From: Candidatus Omnitrophota bacterium
GTDB lineage: Bacteria > Omnitrophota > Gorgyraeia > Zapsychrales > Aceulaceae
Direction of reading: 5' to 3'
Assembly (NCBI GenBank): GCA_041664145.1
Contig: JBAYLJ010000001.1
Location: forward strand, 1 to 25,732
DNA: 25,732 bases
A program made the position numbers and the translations under genes. The notes below the pieces were generated by a model. The model worked only from the letters and a program-made list of their open reading frames with translations, did not search any database and was not told where the DNA came from. Positions 12,477-20,141 of this stretch are shown one piece after another. Each line of letters opens with the position of its first letter. Position 1 is the first letter of the stretch.

Positions 12477-12523
12477 AAACAACGTTGTCTGGGTCATTCA
12501 CCGTCATTCTCGAAAGGAAAAAT

Positions 12524-13390
12524 ATGTCCTCACGTTTTAAGCAAATTTTGACTCTTGCTCTTTTCTTTATATTTACCTTATCCCTGGCCTTTGCAAAGCC
12601 TCAAGAGGATTCTTTGCAGATCAAAGGATCAGATACCATGGTTAATCTTGCCCAAGCTTGGGCTGAAGACTTTATGCAAAAGAATCCTAATTCTTTCATT
12701 GCTGTCACGGGGGGAGGATCTGGGACAGGGATCGCAAGCTTGATTAATGGAACATGCGACATCGCCATGACATCTCGAACCATCAAGCCAAAAGAAATAG
12801 AATTTGCTAAAAAAAGAAATGTTTTTCCCTTTGAACTTAAAGTCGCCTTAGACGGCTTAGCCGTGATTGTTCACCCTCAAAACCCTATCAAAGAACTAAC
12901 AATTGACCAGTTAGCCAAAATCTTTAGCGGTAAGATCGTCAACTGGAAAGAAGTTGGGGGAGAGGATAAAGAAATTGTCATTCTTTCGCGCGAAGTTAAT
13001 TCTGGAACACATGTGTATTTTAAGGAACACGTCCTTCGCCATAACGATCCTTCCTCTCAAGAAGAATTTGCCCCTAAAGCGCTCCTTCTTTCTTCCTCCC
13101 AAGCCATTGCCGATGAAGTGGCTACAAATCCTTCCGCCATTGGATATTACGGAATGGGATATATTTCAAAAAGACAAAAAGCCATTGCGATCGCACAAGA
13201 TGAAAAATCTGTTTATGTGGAGCCAACGGTCGATAACGTTACAAATCAAAGTTATCCTATTTCTCGACCGCTTTACGTTTATACAAATGCTGAGCCGCAA
13301 GGCTTTATGAAAACGTTCATTGATTTTGCCCTTTCACCTGAAGGACAAAAAGTTGTTCTAACAAGTGATTTTGTCCCTCTGATAAAATAA
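12524..13390 (+). CDS. pstS: Phosphate ABC transporter substrate-binding protein
   Basis: IKGSDT, GGGSGTG, AMTSR and SREVNSGT. Sec/SPI-type signal peptide (SLAFA-K) with no lipobox Cys. The ATG at 12524 follows GAAAGGA. Confidence 0.93.
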   Translation: MSSRFKQILTLALFFIFTLSLAFAKPQEDSLQIKGSDTMVNLAQAWAEDFMQKNPNSFIAVTGGGSGTGIASLINGTCDIAMTSRTIKPKEIEFAKKRNVFPFELKVALDGLAVIVHPQNPIKELTIDQLAKIFSGKIVNWKEVGGEDKEIVILSREVNSGTHVYFKEHVLRHNDPSSQEEFAPKALLLSSSQAIADEVATNPSAIGYYGMGYISKRQKAIAIAQDEKSVYVEPTVDNVTNQSYPISRPLYVYTNAEPQGFMKTFIDFALSPEGQKVVLTSDFVPLIK

Positions 13391-13395
13391 AGTTT

Positions 13396-14262
13396 ATGCG
13401 AAAATTTAAAGAATTTATCATCGAGAAGTTAATTCTTATCAGCGGATTAACATCTATTTTCTTCGTTGTTCTTATTTTCTTATTTTTACTCAAAGAAGGT
13501 CTTTCCGTATTTCAAACCGTTACACCTTTTGATTTTCTCTTTGGTAAAAGCTGGTATCCCATTTCCGAACCCGCGCAGTTAGGGATCTTGCCCTTAATGA
13601 TGGGTTCTCTTATCATCACGCTTGGCGCAACTTTAATTTCTGTCCCCATTGGTATTGCTTGCGCTATTTATATTGCGGAAGTCGCTCCATCAAAGATGAA
13701 AGAAATTCTAAAGGCGGGCATAGAACTTTTAGCAGCTATTCCAAGTGTTGTTCTAGGCTTTATTGGTATGATGACCCTTGTTCCGTGGATCAAGAATGTC
13801 TTTAACCTTCCGACAGGGCTTACGGCTTTGTCAGGATCCATCATGTTAGCTTTTATGGCCATGCCCACGATCGTTTCTATTGCCGAAGATGCGCTTTATT
13901 CCGTTCCCAAGTCGTATAAAGAAGGCGCGTTGGCCTTAGGCGCAACGCATTGGCAAACTATTTACCGCATTATTGTTCCAGCGGCAAGCTCAGGTATTTT
14001 AGCAGCTGTTATGCTTGGCATTGGCCGCGTCATTGGAGAAACCATGGCGGTTATGATGATTACCGGCAATGCGGCTGTTATCCCGACAAGCATCTTGCAA
14101 CCTGTCCGTACGCTTACAGCCACAATTGCAGCTGAAATGGGAGAAGCTGTTGTCGGCAGTGAACATTATTTTGCCCTTTTTGCGATCGGCATTGTTTTAT
14201 TTATTATTAGTTTTATCATTAACGTAACATCTGACTTATTTCTACATCGAGAACGAAAATGA
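13396..14262 (+). CDS. pstC: Phosphate ABC transporter permease PstC
   Basis: ELLAAIPSVVLG, EGALALGATHWQT (EAA loop) and GRVIGETMAV. Confidence 0.95.
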   Translation: MRKFKEFIIEKLILISGLTSIFFVVLIFLFLLKEGLSVFQTVTPFDFLFGKSWYPISEPAQLGILPLMMGSLIITLGATLISVPIGIACAIYIAEVAPSKMKEILKAGIELLAAIPSVVLGFIGMMTLVPWIKNVFNLPTGLTALSGSIMLAFMAMPTIVSIAEDALYSVPKSYKEGALALGATHWQTIYRIIVPAASSGILAAVMLGIGRVIGETMAVMMITGNAAVIPTSILQPVRTLTATIAAEMGEAVVGSEHYFALFAIGIVLFIISFIINVTSDLFLHRERK

Positions 14263-15107
14263 TCAGCTCCTTAGGAAAACAAAAAATTGCCTTTTTCTTC
14301 TTATTCCTAGCCAATCTTCTGGTCATTGTTCCCGTGGGCTTAATTTTGCTGATCATTATTCAAAAAGGCCTGCCGGCCATGACATGGCAATTTATTACAG
14401 ATATTCCCCGACAAGGCATGCGCACAGGAGGAATATTTCCTGCTATCATCGGGACCGTTTACCTTGTTGCCGGATCCATTCTTTTTGCTTTACCTATCGG
14501 ATTATTGGCGGCGATCTATTTAAGCGAATATGCCAAAGAGAATCTATTAACACGCATGATCAAGCTTGCGATTGTTAATCTTGCAGGCGTACCTTCCGTT
14601 GTTTATGGTCTTTTTGGGCTTGTTTTATTTGTTTCGTTTTGCAAATTTGGGGCATCCATTATCGCAGGCTCACTCACGCTAGGCATCATGATCTTGCCGA
14701 TCATTATTACAACATCGCTTGAAGCGTTAGAAAGCGTTCCTGCGTTGTTTCGTGAGGTCAGTCTTTCGCTGGGCGCAAGTAAATGGCAAACCATTAGGCA
14801 TATCGTTTTACCTAATGCCATTCCTGGCATTATTACAGGAACCATACTCGGCATTGGAAGGGCAGCAGGGGAAACCGCACCTATTATGTTTACCGTGGCA
14901 GCTTTTTATCTACCGCGGCTACCAAAATCAATCTTTGATCAGGCCATGGCCCTCCCATATCATCTTTACGTTATTTCTACACAAGTTCCTAACGTAGATG
15001 AGAAAATACGCTATGGGACAGCTTTGGTTTTGCTCATCCTTGTTTTATTTGTGAATCTAGTTGCCATTATTATCCGCTATCAATTTAGAAAGAAAAAGAA
15101 ATGGTAA
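14259..15107 (+). CDS. pstA: Phosphate ABC transporter permease PstA
   Basis: NLAGVPSVVYG, EVSLSLGASKWQT and GRAAGETAP. ATGA overlap with pstC. Confidence 0.95.
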   Translation: MISSLGKQKIAFFFLFLANLLVIVPVGLILLIIIQKGLPAMTWQFITDIPRQGMRTGGIFPAIIGTVYLVAGSILFALPIGLLAAIYLSEYAKENLLTRMIKLAIVNLAGVPSVVYGLFGLVLFVSFCKFGASIIAGSLTLGIMILPIIITTSLEALESVPALFREVSLSLGASKWQTIRHIVLPNAIPGIITGTILGIGRAAGETAPIMFTVAAFYLPRLPKSIFDQAMALPYHLYVISTQVPNVDEKIRYGTALVLLILVLFVNLVAIIIRYQFRKKKKW

Positions 15108-15922
15108 ACTCCGTTCAAAATATAAAATCGGCGGCTAACGCATCCAACAAAAGTTGTCCTGAGGGAATTTCAAGCGGGATAAAGATCGATATCCAAGATC
15201 TTAATGTTTGGTTTGCGGCAAACCATGCCTTAAAGAATGTCAACATGCAAGTTTACAACCATGAAATCTTATGCGCGATCGGGCCAGCAAATAGCGGAAA
15301 AACATCTTTTTTGCGAACGATCAATCGGCTAAACAATGTTTTGCCAAATTTTAAAACGAGCGGAAATATCATCCTTGATGGCGAGGATATCAAAAAGATC
15401 GATATTGAGCTTTTGCGAAAAAGAGTGGGAATGGTTTTTGCCATGCCATCGCCCTTGCCGCTTTCTGTTTTTGACAATGTCGCTTATGGTGCTCGGATGT
15501 CAGGCATAAAAAATAAGAACAAGCTTAACGAAATCGTTGAACGTTCTTTAGAACAAGCTTATCTTTGGCAAGAAATCAAAGATCGCTTAAATGAATCTGC
15601 CTTTAAGCTATCTGGGGGCCAGCAGCAACGGCTTTGCATTGCGCGGACACTAGCTGTTGAACCTGAGATCATCTTGTTTGATGAGCCTTGCTCAGGCCTT
15701 GACCCGATTTCAACAGCCAAGGTTGAAGAAGCCATGCTGAAGCTTAAAGAAATTTATACGATCATCCTTGTCACGAATAATGTTAAGCAAGCTGCGCGTG
15801 TTGGCAACCGAACAGCCTTTTTTTTAAGCGGAGAACTTGTTGAGCTCGATCGTACAGAAAAACTATTTACAGCCCCGTCGGATCAGCGTACCGATGGTTA
15901 TATAAGAGGAAGATTTGGATGA
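15101..15922 (+). CDS. pstB: Phosphate ABC ATPase PstB1, with degenerate Q-loop and H-loop and intact signature
   Basis: Walker A GPANSGKT, Q-loop VGMVFAMP (Q to A), signature LSGGQQQR, Walker B ILFDEP, H-loop VTNN (H to N). C-terminus TDGYIRGRFG. Confidence 0.9.
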   Translation: MVNSVQNIKSAANASNKSCPEGISSGIKIDIQDLNVWFAANHALKNVNMQVYNHEILCAIGPANSGKTSFLRTINRLNNVLPNFKTSGNIILDGEDIKKIDIELLRKRVGMVFAMPSPLPLSVFDNVAYGARMSGIKNKNKLNEIVERSLEQAYLWQEIKDRLNESAFKLSGGQQQRLCIARTLAVEPEIILFDEPCSGLDPISTAKVEEAMLKLKEIYTIILVTNNVKQAARVGNRTAFFLSGELVELDRTEKLFTAPSDQRTDGYIRGRFG

Positions 15923-16668
15923 TCCCAAAAATTAAAATTCAGGATTTAAATCTTCATTACAGTGATTTTCATGCCTTAAAGAACGTGAATGTGGCTCTCG
16001 AGGCAAAAAAAATTACAGCGATCATCGGGCCTTCTGGCTGTGGCAAATCCACACTTTTACGCGTCTTTAATCGCATGAACGACCTTGTGGATGGTGTTAA
16101 AATAACAGGGGAGGTCTTGATCGACGGCAACAATATTCTTAACGCTGACACTAACTTAGTTGACCTGCGTAAAAAAGTGGGAATGGTTTTTCAACGGCCA
16201 AATCCTTTTCCTTTATCCATTTATGAAAATATTGTTTTTGGGCTTAAGGTTCACGGAGTCAAAAAAAACTTAGATCCTGTCGTGGAAAGCAGCTTGAGGG
16301 CCGTATCACTATGGGATGGGCTTAAAGACCGTCTTAAGAAATCAGCCCTTAGCCTAACCCTGGAAGAAAAGCAGAGACTTTGCATTGCGAGGCTCATTGC
16401 CGTTAAATCGGACATTGTCCTTATGGACGAGCCCTGCTCATCTCTGGACCCTCAATCAACAGCGCGCATTGAAGAGTTGATGCGCGAACTTAAGAACGAC
16501 TACACTATCGTCATTGTGACGCATAACATGCAGCAAGCAGCCCGTGTTTCTGATGACACAGGATTTATGCTTTTGGGCGAATTGATCGAATTTAATAAAA
16601 CTGAGGTTATTTTTACAAAACCTCAAGATAGCCGGACAGAAGGCTATATAACTGGGCGATACGGTTAA
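15919..16668 (+). CDS. pstB: Phosphate ABC ATPase PstB2, with degenerate signature motif
   Basis: Walker A GPSGCGKST, Q-loop VFQRPNPF, signature replaced by LTLEEKQR, Walker B VLMDEP, H-loop VTHN. C-terminus TEGYITGRYG. ATGA overlap with pstB1. Confidence 0.92.
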   Translation: MIPKIKIQDLNLHYSDFHALKNVNVALEAKKITAIIGPSGCGKSTLLRVFNRMNDLVDGVKITGEVLIDGNNILNADTNLVDLRKKVGMVFQRPNPFPLSIYENIVFGLKVHGVKKNLDPVVESSLRAVSLWDGLKDRLKKSALSLTLEEKQRLCIARLIAVKSDIVLMDEPCSSLDPQSTARIEELMRELKNDYTIVIVTHNMQQAARVSDDTGFMLLGELIEFNKTEVIFTKPQDSRTEGYITGRYG

Positions 16669-16677
16669 GGAGGAATC

Positions 16678-17364
16678 ATGGAACGACATTTTGACGAAGA
16701 ATTAAAAAAATTAAATGCAAATATTATGAAAATGGCATCTTTAACAGAAGAAGCTATTCATAGTTCGATCAAGGCTCTGAAAAATCGCGACAAGGGATTA
16801 GCGCAGTCGGTGATCAGTGACGACCGCAAGATCGATGAATTTGAACTTTTAATTGAAGAAGAAACTATTGATCTTCTTGCTCTGATGCAGCCGATGGCAA
16901 GTGATTTACGCTTTATCACAACAGGAATGAAGATCAATGCAGAGCTTGAGCGTATTGCGGATTTAGCTGTCAATATTGCCCAGCGTGTTCTTGAGGTTGC
17001 AGATATGCCGCTTTTAAAACCCTTGGTAGATATTCCAAAGCTTTCAGCTGTTGCCGCGAGCATGGTACGAAGCGCTATCGATGCTTTTGTGAATCACGAC
17101 GAGATCCTTGCCAAAAAAGTGATCATTTCTGATTCCGAAGCCGATAACCTCAAAAACCTTATTCATAAAGAGCTGGTCAACGATTATATGATCAAAGATA
17201 GCACAACCGTTGCCCGCGCTGTTCCGCTTCTTCTCGTGGCGCGTCATCTGGAACGTATTTGCGATCACGCCACCAATATTGCCGAAGACGTGATCTACAT
17301 GGTCCAGGCTAAAACGGTTAAGCATCACCCTGAAATGCTAAAAGATAACGGAAACAATATCTAG
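16678..17364 (+). CDS. phoU: Phosphate signalling/uptake regulator PhoU
   Basis: Two PhoU repeats: QPMASDLR...ELERIADLAVNIA and LERICDHATNIAE. AAGGAGG RBS. Confidence 0.95.
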   Translation: MERHFDEELKKLNANIMKMASLTEEAIHSSIKALKNRDKGLAQSVISDDRKIDEFELLIEEETIDLLALMQPMASDLRFITTGMKINAELERIADLAVNIAQRVLEVADMPLLKPLVDIPKLSAVAASMVRSAIDAFVNHDEILAKKVIISDSEADNLKNLIHKELVNDYMIKDSTTVARAVPLLLVARHLERICDHATNIAEDVIYMVQAKTVKHHPEMLKDNGNNI

Positions 17365-17375
17365 TCGGAGGGTTT

Positions 17376-18899
17376 ATGTCGCAAGACAAGAAAATTGGCT
17401 TTGATAACGAAAAATACCTTACGGAACAAACCAAAGAAATCCTTACGCGCGTTAAGCGATTCGACAACAAGCTTTATCTTGAATTTGGAGGAAAACTCCT
17501 CTTTGATTATCATGCCTCCCGTGTCCTTCCTGGATTTGATCCCAATGTCAAAATTAAACTATTAAAACGCTTGGAAAATGATGCTGATATTATCCTTTGT
17601 ATTCATGCAGGAGATATTGAACGTCGAAAAGTACGCGCAGATTTTGGCATCACCTACGATGTTGACGCTTTAAAACTCATTGATGATCTAAAAGACTGGA
17701 AAATTGATATTTGCGCCGTTGTGATCACGCGCTTTAACAATCAACCCGCCGCAACGATCTTTAAGAATAAGCTTGAACGTTCTGGCATCCGTGTTTTTAC
17801 ACATTCTTTTACCAAGGGGTATCCTACCAATGTTGATCTCATCGTTAGTGAAGAAGGTTACGGAGCTAATGAATATATTCCGGCGAATAAAAGACTTGTG
17901 ATCGTTACAGGGCCTGGCCCTGGAAGCGGAAAACTAGCAACATGCCTCTCGCAGCTTTATCATGAGCATAAACGAGGCGTTAAGGCAGGGTATGCAAAAT
18001 TTGAAACATTTCCTATCTGGAACCTACCCCTTAAGCATCCTGTCAACGTTGCCTATGAATCCGCGACAGCGGATATTAAAGATTTCAACATGATCGATTC
18101 TTTTCATTTTGAAGCTTATCAAAAAATGTCGGTTAACTATAATCGAGATGTGGAAGTTTTTCCTGTCGTAAAACGCATTCTTACCAAGATCATCGGCGAC
18201 GAAATTTATAGATCACCAACGGATATGGGTGTTAATTGCGCAGGGTTCGGTATCGTTGATGACGCGATCGTTCAGGAAGCTGCCAAACAAGAAATTATCA
18301 GACGTTTTTTCCGCTATAAGTGTGAATTTATATTAGGCCTTGTTGACCGCGAAGCCGTTGAGCGTGCTGAATTGCTGATGAAAGAGATGAACATTAATGT
18401 TATCGATCGAAAAGTTGTTTCGGCTGCTCGCCAAGCTGCTGAAGATGCTGAAAAAAAAGGAAAAGGGAACAAAGGTGTTTTTTGCGGAGCAGCCATTGAA
18501 TTAAAAGATGGCCGAATTATTATTGGTAAAAATTCTCCTTTGATGCATGCGGCCTCTAGCCTTGTCTTGAACGTACTTAAAGAATTAGCAGACATTCCTG
18601 ATAAAATACCTTTGTTATCAAAAAATGCTATTGATTCTATTTCAAACTTAAAAAAAGATATCTTAAAAATGAAGACACTGAGCCTTGACCTTGATGAAAC
18701 ATTGATCAGCTTAAGCATCAGCGCAACATCAAATCCTGTATCTCAGCTAGCCCTGGAAAAATTAACAGAGTTGCAGGGATGTGAGGTTCACATGACGCAT
18801 ATTCCAACACCAGGTGATGAGGCAGGCTTAAGGCGCCTGGGTGTTAATTTGACAACCGATCCAAATTTTTCTTCTGGCAGTCTTTGTGATTTCAGATAA
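17376..18899 (+). CDS. DUF1846 (UPF0371) family protein
   Basis: KIGFDNEKY, LYLEFGGKL, RADFGITYD, GPGPGSGKLATCLSQLY, YAKFETFPIWNLPLKHPVN, SPTDMGVN and LGVNLTTDP. GGAGG RBS. Confidence 0.9.
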   Translation: MSQDKKIGFDNEKYLTEQTKEILTRVKRFDNKLYLEFGGKLLFDYHASRVLPGFDPNVKIKLLKRLENDADIILCIHAGDIERRKVRADFGITYDVDALKLIDDLKDWKIDICAVVITRFNNQPAATIFKNKLERSGIRVFTHSFTKGYPTNVDLIVSEEGYGANEYIPANKRLVIVTGPGPGSGKLATCLSQLYHEHKRGVKAGYAKFETFPIWNLPLKHPVNVAYESATADIKDFNMIDSFHFEAYQKMSVNYNRDVEVFPVVKRILTKIIGDEIYRSPTDMGVNCAGFGIVDDAIVQEAAKQEIIRRFFRYKCEFILGLVDREAVERAELLMKEMNINVIDRKVVSAARQAAEDAEKKGKGNKGVFCGAAIELKDGRIIIGKNSPLMHAASSLVLNVLKELADIPDKIPLLSKNAIDSISNLKKDILKMKTLSLDLDETLISLSISATSNPVSQLALEKLTELQGCEVHMTHIPTPGDEAGLRRLGVNLTTDPNFSSGSLCDFR

Positions 18900-19358: not shown

Positions 19359-20141
19359 TTGATACGAAGAAAACTTTTAATCAGCTACACGCTTGCTCTT
19401 GGATTCTCTATTCTCGCGTTTTCTAGCTGTACTAAAATAGAGAAAAAAGATGCCTTGTTTCAAGCCTCGACGATTTCGGCGCTATCCCAAGGAATGTATC
19501 ATGGCGACATGTCATTTCAAGAATTAAATAAATACGGCGATTTTGGCCTTGGAACATTCAACGACTTAGACGGGGAAATGATCATCCTCGATGGTGTCTT
19601 TTATCAGGCAAAGACAGACGGATACCTTTATCCTGTATCCCTGCAAGAAACTAAAACACCTTTTTCTGAAGTTACTTTCTTCCGATCAAATCTGACTAAA
19701 ACAGTAACTCGTCAGATGACCCAAACTGAATTGAAAGAAATGATCACCGGCCTTTTAAGATCAAAAAATATTTTTTATGCAATACGGATCGTTGGTCATT
19801 TTCCTTACATAAAAATACGAAGCGTACCTGCCCAAAAAAGGCCATACCCTAAGCTGGATGACGTTGTAAAAGATCAAGCTGTGTTTGAATTTCACCAGGC
19901 AGAAGGAACGATTGTAGGATTCTGGTGCCCTGAATATGTAAAAAAAGTTAATGTCCCTGGCTACCATTTTCACTTTATTAGCAGGGATAAAAAAAGAGGG
20001 GGCCATGTTCTTGATTTCATCATAACAAATTCAACGATCGATATTGATGAAAAAACATCTCTTGACGTTGTGCTTCCAGAAACAGAAGATTTTTACATGA
20101 TCGATACATCAGAAGAAAGCCAAAATCTGGCCGAAAAGTAA
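19359..20141 (+). CDS. budA: Alpha-acetolactate decarboxylase with a lipoprotein-type signal peptide
   Basis: FQASTISAL, GDFGLGTF..LDGEM, IRSVP and GYHFHF...GGHVLD (three Zn-binding His). N-terminus RRK plus hydrophobic stretch plus AFSS-C. TTG start directly after the previous stop, with AGGAG 6 nt upstream. Confidence 0.88.
   Translation: MIRRKLLISYTLALGFSILAFSSCTKIEKKDALFQASTISALSQGMYHGDMSFQELNKYGDFGLGTFNDLDGEMIILDGVFYQAKTDGYLYPVSLQETKTPFSEVTFFRSNLTKTVTRQMTQTELKEMITGLLRSKNIFYAIRIVGHFPYIKIRSVPAQKRPYPKLDDVVKDQAVFEFHQAEGTIVGFWCPEYVKKVNVPGYHFHFISRDKKRGGHVLDFIITNSTIDIDEKTSLDVVLPETEDFYMIDTSEESQNLAEK

Follow-up and report, generated by a model that had tools for sequence, protein, structure and literature searches.

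The usual picture of type I ATP-binding cassette (ABC) importers is that of a symmetric machine using two ATP, yet how many ATP are spent per substrate in ABC transport is a matter of continuing debate (PMC3971661). In the phosphate importer PstSCAB of Escherichia coli, for which cryo-electron microscopy structures have been solved (9k3x/9k3y), two identical PstB subunits form two consensus ATP sites, and in PstB itself ATP is held between the Walker A/B motifs of one subunit and the LSGGQ signature of the other (PMC12976172). Degenerate ATP sites are common among ABC exporters (PMC3971661), and the cycle of heterodimeric exporters is believed to be powered by a single hydrolytic site (PMC3971661, PMC7756269, PMC12038006). 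For the histidine permease, too, one active site is cited as sufficient (PMC3971661). Here we describe the pst operon in a stretch of 25,732 nucleotides from a Candidatus Omnitrophota bacterium (NCBI GenBank assembly GCA_041664145.1, contig JBAYLJ010000001.1, positions 1 to 25,732 of the forward strand; hereafter the window). Unlike the E. coli system, it encodes two different PstB subunits, PstB1 and PstB2, whose motif changes are complementary, such that one composite ATP site is consensus and the other collects all deviations. What we describe is a natural, ancient, and widespread Pst importer, which on comparative grounds seems to operate with one consensus site.

PstB1 and PstB2 carry complementary motif changes

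PstB1, a protein of 273 amino acids (15101-15922, forward strand, as are all genes of the operon), has an intact LSGGQ signature (15608-15622) and an altered cis site. Its Walker A motif reads GPANSGKT (15281-15304) in place of the canonical PstB sequence GPSGCGKS, its Q-loop VFAMP contains Ala114 (GCC, 15440-15442) instead of Gln (E. coli Q98), and its H-loop VTNN contains Asn226 (AAT, 15776-15778) instead of His (E. coli H210). Retained are the Walker A residue Lys67 and the Walker B residues Asp194 and Glu195 (ILFDEP, 15671-15688), and the D-loop reads SGLD. PstB2, of 249 amino acids (15919-16668), is canonical at GPSGCGKS, VFQRP, VLMDEP, SSLD, and VTHN, and has LTLEE (16354-16368) in the place of the signature, with Leu148 and Glu149 standing for both glycines (E. 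coli G156, G157). This pentapeptide aligns opposite the LSGGQ of the solved E. coli PstB (PDB 9k3x), and an identity of about 50% to a solved PstB already settles the fold of the single subunits. Neither subunit carries the full canonical set of ABC motifs: PstB1 departs from it at Walker A, Q-loop, and H-loop, and PstB2 at the signature. Every motif coordinate of a first-pass annotation of the window, made from the sequence alone, was reproduced to the base. Because ATP is held by the Walker A/B motifs of one subunit and the LSGGQ of the other, the cis motifs of PstB2 combined with the PstB1 signature give a consensus site, and the cis motifs of PstB1 combined with the PstB2 signature collect all deviations.

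This arrangement was also found in a scan that was not restricted to known motifs, in which every alignment position with at least 85% conservation in canonical PstBs, 119 in total, was checked for a fixed residue specific to either paralogue. Fixed changes in PstB1 (E. coli numbering) lie in Walker A (T39, S45, C47, S50), at M59, in the Q-loop and groove (Q98, F103), in the D-loop (A183), and in the H-loop (H210, Q213). Those in PstB2 are confined to A137, V143, G156, and G157, in the helical subdomain and the signature, and none of the fixed changes among the 119 positions maps to the faces from which the consensus site is formed. Motif reading and position scan thus both bear out the claim of the first-pass annotation that every deviation falls in the site formed by PstB1 in cis and the PstB2 signature.

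The complementary pattern is conserved across tandem pairs

Orthologous loci were ascertained from both subunits. A search with PstB1, with one genome per species, gave 79 loci (set 1), and the reverse ascertainment, a scan for the PstB2 signature in PstB context, gave at least 120 loci (set 2); two further searches, seeded by members of the Ignavibacteriota and Verrucomicrobiota, contributed new lineages and canonical controls. In set 1, the Gln-to-Ala and His-to-Asn changes were present in 76 of 76 PstB1 orthologues, and all 68 readable PstB2 orthologues had a signature of the form L[ST]LE[QE] with Gln and His intact. The Walker A GK[TS] and Walker B DEP of PstB1 were invariant among the 76 orthologues of set 1, with one DEH in set 2. 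Among the set 2 matches listed, a PstB1-type gene lay directly upstream of PstB2 wherever the locus had room.

Pooling the loci of the first three sets (L005-L287, among the matches listed) gave 176 distinct complete tandem pairs, 169 of which show the full pattern: the upstream gene has lost the Q-loop Gln, has Asn for the H-loop His, and keeps LSGGQ, and the downstream gene keeps the Gln. In the downstream gene of these 169 pairs, the second signature Gly is always replaced by Glu or Asp, and the His is kept in 168; the residues at the positions of the first and second Gly are LE (158), GE (4), LD (2), AE (2), MD (1), and VE (1). Two of the 176 pairs are intermediates, and five, from Neobacillus and Steroidobacteraceae, are canonical in both genes. 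Defects spread over both composite sites were seen in none of the 176, and PstB1 was upstream of PstB2 in every tandem pair. About 25 more full-pattern pairs came from the fourth search, together with two further tandems that are canonical in both genes (Ignavibacterium, L343; Ammoniphilus, L362).

The co-occurrence of Q- and H-loop loss with loss of the partner's signature, which the first-pass annotation had proposed as a check, proved strict from both the PstB1 and the PstB2 side. The His-to-Asn change was seen only alongside a replaced second signature Gly in the partner, and the replacement is acidic in all pairs but one, a Spirochaetia metagenome-assembled genome (MAG) from the fourth search (L293) with the signature LPLYH, whose second position is non-acidic. 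Given the phylogeny, this coupling may reflect a single event. Around the pairs, permease genes were located upstream in 158 of 159 related loci, and phoU followed PstB2 in 102 of the 114 loci with room downstream. The best 120 matches of a search of 5.8 billion proteins were close PstB1 orthologues and added no breadth. The short contigs behind P0133, P0125, and P0153 held only partial neighbours, yet they exposed the intermediate pair L206.

Some lineages have PstB2 signatures of their own (L288-L295; L297, L302, L303, L309, L319, L337, L356, L361). PVC-labelled MAGs carry LPLDQ or LPMDQ, and deltaproteobacterial and Syntrophorhabdus MAGs carry LTEEQ or LSEE[IM], partnered by a PstB1 with VSNN and either VLSKP or VFAKP.

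Both subunits are under equal constraint and inherited together

In maximum-likelihood trees, all PstB1-type proteins formed one split, with a Shimodaira-Hasegawa-like approximate likelihood-ratio test (SH-aLRT) value of 99, and all PstB2-type proteins formed another, with a value of 88 that fell to 60 after divergent rows were added. Canonical PstBs, the Firmicutes tandems included, fell outside both branches. Over 160 loci, the mean pairwise identity was 64.7% for PstB1 and 66.8% for PstB2, and the distance matrices of the two subunits were closely matched (Mantel r = 0.85, a value reached by 0 of 500 permutations). From this equal conservation and the matching distances it follows that PstB1 is under purifying selection as strong as that on PstB2 and that the two are inherited together. 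Hardly any variation is seen in the replacement residues themselves, Ala, Asn, and Glu or Asp. Conserved asymmetry and co-inherited subunits, as looked for in a pair with one consensus and one degenerate site, are both found here.

Relatives with a partial form of the pattern were detected in an Anaerolineae MAG (L282), a Bacillota MAG (L236), and a metagenome contig (L206). In the first two, PstB1 has lost the Q-loop Gln and kept the H-loop His; in L206, PstB1 is cut upstream of the Q-loop and the His is kept. The PstB2 signature of all three is LSLGQ, in which the first Gly alone is replaced. These intermediates branch inside the PstB1 and PstB2 branches and outside the full-pattern clades, a position that suggests stepwise degeneration.

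An extreme form was found in three Firmicutes-labelled MAGs (genomes G201-G203; L320, L327, L363, L370-L375), with the gene order pstB2-like, pstS, pstC, pstA, pstB1-like, phoU. The PstB1-like protein has GPANSGIT, in which the P-loop Lys is replaced by Ile, Asp for the Q-loop Gln, and LLDRP, in which the catalytic Glu is replaced by Arg, together with a perfect LSGGQ; in the PstB2-like protein, all cis motifs are intact and the signature is LTTEQ or LSPGQ. G201 and G202 additionally carry an ordinary pstCAB-phoU operon. As read from these sequences, the site of PstB1 itself can be destroyed outright with its signature retained, as a heterodimer model would predict. No natural fusion of PstB1 and PstB2 was found among 500 PstB open reading frames (ORFs) or the long database matches, the candidates P0004, P0176, and P0203 being duplications, insertions, or broken calls.

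Operon structure and genome setting

According to NCBIfam models, the two genes are part of a gene cluster in the order pstS-pstC-pstA-pstB1-pstB2-phoU (12485-17364). It comprises pstS for the phosphate-binding protein (12485-13390; TIGR02136, 271 bits), the permease genes pstC (13396-14262; TIGR02138, 299 bits) and pstA (14259-15107; TIGR00974, 294 bits), the two ATPase genes, and phoU (16678-17364; TIGR02135, 203 bits). The pstS ORF opens at TTG 12485, and the likely start is the ATG at 12524, which is preceded by a GAAAGGA ribosome-binding site. PstB2 scores 361.0 bits as a whole protein against the PstB model TIGR00972, above its curated cut-off of 343.2; PstB1, with 338.6 bits, is slightly below that cut-off, and PstB is still its best family by about 100 bits. 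Both genes stand in the operon context expected of PstB, between pstS-pstC-pstA and phoU. The pstA stop codon overlaps the pstB1 ATG, and the pstB1 stop and the pstB2 ATG share the sequence ATGA (15919-15922), as is typical where translational coupling provides subunits in equal amounts.

The source genome is a MAG of 1.26 Mb in 220 contigs that is 80% complete. Genome-wide, within that completeness, we detected no PstB besides PstB1 and PstB2, no PiT (PF01384), and no Na/Pi cotransporter (PF02690). The asymmetric Pst system is the sole recognisable phosphate importer of this 80%-complete MAG.

Several other features of the region were recorded. Two GTCATTC direct repeats, 10 bp apart (12493-12509), are similar to Pho-box half-sites (CTGTCAT) and are located after the -10 element of a sigma-70-like promoter (TTGAAT...ATAATA), not at -35, and before the likely start of pstS. 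PstB1 has a 26-residue N-terminal extension (15101-15178), which is shared only by its closest relatives, proteins of 272-273 amino acids, and is absent from most orthologues (248 amino acids). On the same strand, 12 bp 3' of phoU, lies a gene for a DUF1846 protein (17376-18899; PRK13663, 757 bits). Further downstream, a homologue of alpha-acetolactate decarboxylase (19359-20141; PF03306) has an N-terminal hydrophobic segment ending in ...AFSSC, which looks like a lipoprotein signal peptide and would be unusual in this cytoplasmic enzyme family.

Phylogenetic distribution of the asymmetric pair

By MAG label, which is approximate, the carriers include Omnitrophota (61), Planctomycetota (45), Elusimicrobiota (19), and Ignavibacteriota (6). 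Fewer are labelled Bacteroidota, Acidobacteriota/Aminicenantes, Margulisiibacteriota, Firestonebacteria, Verrucomicrobiota, Lentisphaerota, Nitrospirota, Thermodesulfobacteriota, deltaproteobacterial, and others, so that more than 15 phylum labels are represented among the carriers. In an even sample of 201 Omnitrophota genomes, a PstB1-type protein (at least 60% identity) was present in 81 (about 40%), about 71 had only PstB matches of at most 57% identity, which are presumably canonical, and 49 had no match. In the three of four genome-collection scans that were read for a cultured carrier, none was found, and every carrier detected is a MAG. Matches in Sporomusa, Pectinatus, Paramaledivibacter, Streptococcus, Brevibacillus, and Neobacillus were rejected as carriers, all being canonical.

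Many of the groups that carry the pair are energy-limited anaerobes, and spending one ATP less per cycle might suit such a life. In many of these bacteria the asymmetric Pst is the only recognisable phosphate uptake system, and its properties bear on their phosphorus acquisition.

A heterodimeric motor with one consensus site as the likely mechanism

We consider it likely that PstB1 and PstB2 form an obligate heterodimer that powers this Pst importer, in which one site is catalytic and the other is slow or silent in hydrolysis. The first-pass annotation had arrived at an obligate heterodimer from the motifs of one locus, and the proposal now gains support from the co-occurrence of the changes, the position scan, the single branch formed by each subunit, their co-inheritance and equal constraint, the ATGA overlap, and the finding of no other PstB. 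Site 1, formed by the Walker A/B, Q-loop, and H-loop of PstB2 and the LSGGQ of PstB1, would be fully consensus and would hydrolyse the ATP that powers transport. Site 2 would consist of the Walker A/B motifs of PstB1, with Ala for Gln and Asn for His, and the LTLEE of PstB2. It would be without three elements that normally contact the γ-phosphate, Mg2+, or the attacking water, and would retain the P-loop Lys/Thr and the Walker B Asp-Glu. We infer that site 2 probably binds nucleotide, because these residues are kept, and that it hydrolyses it slowly or not at all, because the three elements are lost. The pump would then cost about one ATP per cycle.

The replacement of the second signature Gly is informative with respect to what site 2 may do. 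In CFTR, G551D and G551E, but not G551K or G551S, at the position equivalent to the acidic residue of PstB2, make the site ATP-inhibited: the γ-phosphate is repelled, ATP is not occluded, and dimerisation of the nucleotide-binding domains (NBDs) is prevented (PMC4178940). By analogy, the conserved Glu or Asp in PstB2 should repel the γ-phosphate of ATP. Site 2 would in that case fail to close over ATP in the manner of the degenerate sites of exporters, and it probably does not occlude ATP in the classical way.

PstB1 proteins of the full pattern retain, with hardly an exception, the Walker A Lys/Thr, the Walker B Asp, and the catalytic Glu, and the replacement residues are nearly invariant, as in a working rather than a decaying site. 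This could also be read to mean that both sites are catalytically competent, that the Asn and the trans Glu substitute functionally for His and Gln, and that two ATP are spent per cycle. We regard this as improbable, given that three independent γ-phosphate or Mg contacts are altered in the same site, that an anionic residue at the second signature Gly abolishes ATP-driven NBD dimerisation in CFTR (PMC4178940), and that the related lineage which lost both the Walker A Lys and the catalytic Glu of PstB1 kept its LSGGQ, showing that PstB1 can do without a site of its own.

It is very improbable, in our view, that the two proteins do not form a joint motor at all and act instead as alternative homodimers or in separate roles, PstB1 serving for example in signalling or regulation towards PhoU/PhoR. 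Either homodimer would carry two defective sites, in agreement with the expectation of the first-pass annotation that both would be impaired, and in all 169 full-pattern pairs the defects are strictly complementary. Translational coupling and co-inheritance link the genes, and the genome of the window has no other PstB for transport. The position of phoU after PstB2 in most loci would suit a regulatory role, as would the precedent of Enterococcus faecalis, in which adjacent pstB genes have non-overlapping cellular functions (PMC12096839); the E. faecalis proteins, however, have canonical motifs throughout, and those encoded in tandem by Neobacillus, another Firmicute, lie outside the PstB1 and PstB2 branches.

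The possibility that the substitutions stem from errors in sequencing or assembly, or mark a pseudogene copy in decay, for which the fragmented MAG might give some ground, can be dismissed as practically negligible. The first-pass annotation had named assembly errors, or changes unique to this genome, as grounds for rejecting its reading. More than 200 independent assemblies share the substitutions, which are present in 76/76 PstB1 and 68/68 PstB2 orthologues and 169/176 pairs, so that the pattern is beyond chance; the frames are open, and PstB1 is as conserved as PstB2.

Several considerations weigh against the heterodimer with a single catalytic site. Its support comes from comparative sequence analysis, every carrier detected being an uncultured MAG with an approximate phylum label, and the co-occurrence counts come from related sequences that represent few independent events. 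Strict conservation of the catalytic Glu and of the whole nucleotide-binding core of PstB1 means that some hydrolysis, residual or conditional, may persist at site 2, and Q-loop and H-loop substitutions in other ABC ATPases lower activity without always abolishing it. An acidic signature that blocks closure over ATP also sits awkwardly with a dimer that would have to close when PstB1 is loaded with ATP.

Within the heterodimer reading, site 2 might close over ADP, or might use the carboxylate in place of the γ-phosphate or as a Mg ligand, which is speculation. Since the His-to-Asn change occurs only together with a change of the second signature Gly, to Glu or Asp in all pairs but L293, and both positions normally touch the γ-phosphate, the trans carboxylate may occupy the γ-phosphate or Mg position. 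We tentatively raise the idea, doubtful as it is, that site 2 is not merely dead and is a purpose-built latch or sensor of nucleotide state, closing with ADP or without a γ-phosphate and hindered by ATP. If this were true, phosphate uptake would be coupled to the ADP/ATP or inorganic phosphate status of the cell at a cost of one ATP per cycle, and the site would represent a kind of degenerate site undescribed in exporters, where ATP is occluded.

Comparison with known systems

A search of the full-text literature, with most subscription journals outside its coverage, returned no description of a one-site-degenerate heterodimer in a Pst system, which is consistent with the statement of the first-pass annotation that the pattern is undescribed there. 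Among importers, the E. coli PstSCAB belongs to the same transporter family and shares the operon, with PstB2 having about 60% of positions in common in a local alignment. The Firmicutes systems with tandem pstB1/pstB2 genes (pstBA/pstBB; E. faecalis, Bacillus subtilis, Neobacillus) resemble the operon of the window in having adjacent pstB genes in a pst-phoU operon, and their products are presumed to supply the two NBDs. We rejected an identity with these systems: the E. faecalis and Neobacillus proteins are canonical, and in the three Neobacillus pairs both genes retain the Q-loop Gln and are placed by the tree among canonical PstBs. The Steroidobacteraceae tandems were likewise rejected, being canonical too. 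Because the Firmicutes tandems are canonical, tandem duplication alone does not imply asymmetry. PstBA/PstBB of B. subtilis has been modelled as an ordinary type I importer in a study that noted degenerate sites only in the fused RbsA and NupO (PMC11466899). In RbsA and NupO, one of the two ATP sites is off consensus, as in the pair described here; they differ in that their NBDs are in one polypeptide, they belong to another importer class, their deviations include loss of the Walker A Lys, and they are unrelated to PstB.

There is also a close likeness to exporters and channels with one degenerate site (TM287/288, TmrAB, BmrCD, TAP1/2, CFTR, SUR, MsRv1273c/72c). These also have two non-identical NBDs, with all deviations in one composite site, the other consensus, and an evolutionarily conserved asymmetry. 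In them the NBDs are fused to the transmembrane domains, whereas here they are free subunits, and the type I importer to which they belong has a substrate-binding protein. For exporter degenerate sites, absence of the catalytic Walker B Glu is called a hallmark (PMC7544095). In PstB1, Asp194-Glu195 are kept, and Glu is replaced by Arg only in the variants from Firmicutes-labelled MAGs. The resemblance to exporters drawn by the first-pass annotation thus extends to complementary degeneration of one site and stops at its chemistry: the catalytic Glu is kept, other residues stand in for Gln and His, and a conserved Glu or Asp takes the place of the second signature Gly.

The asymmetric Pst would be somewhat surprising to a specialist in Pst or ABC transport, and it offers a natural system for the question of ATP stoichiometry. 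The graded series of intermediates, full-pattern pairs, and forms in which PstB1 is without the P-loop Lys and the catalytic Glu provides natural constructs for asking how many ATP sites an importer needs and which purpose the second one serves. The principle of an ABC motor with one degenerate site is itself familiar; what is new, as supported by the comparative data, is its apparent occurrence in a type I importer with free NBDs and an unusual site chemistry.

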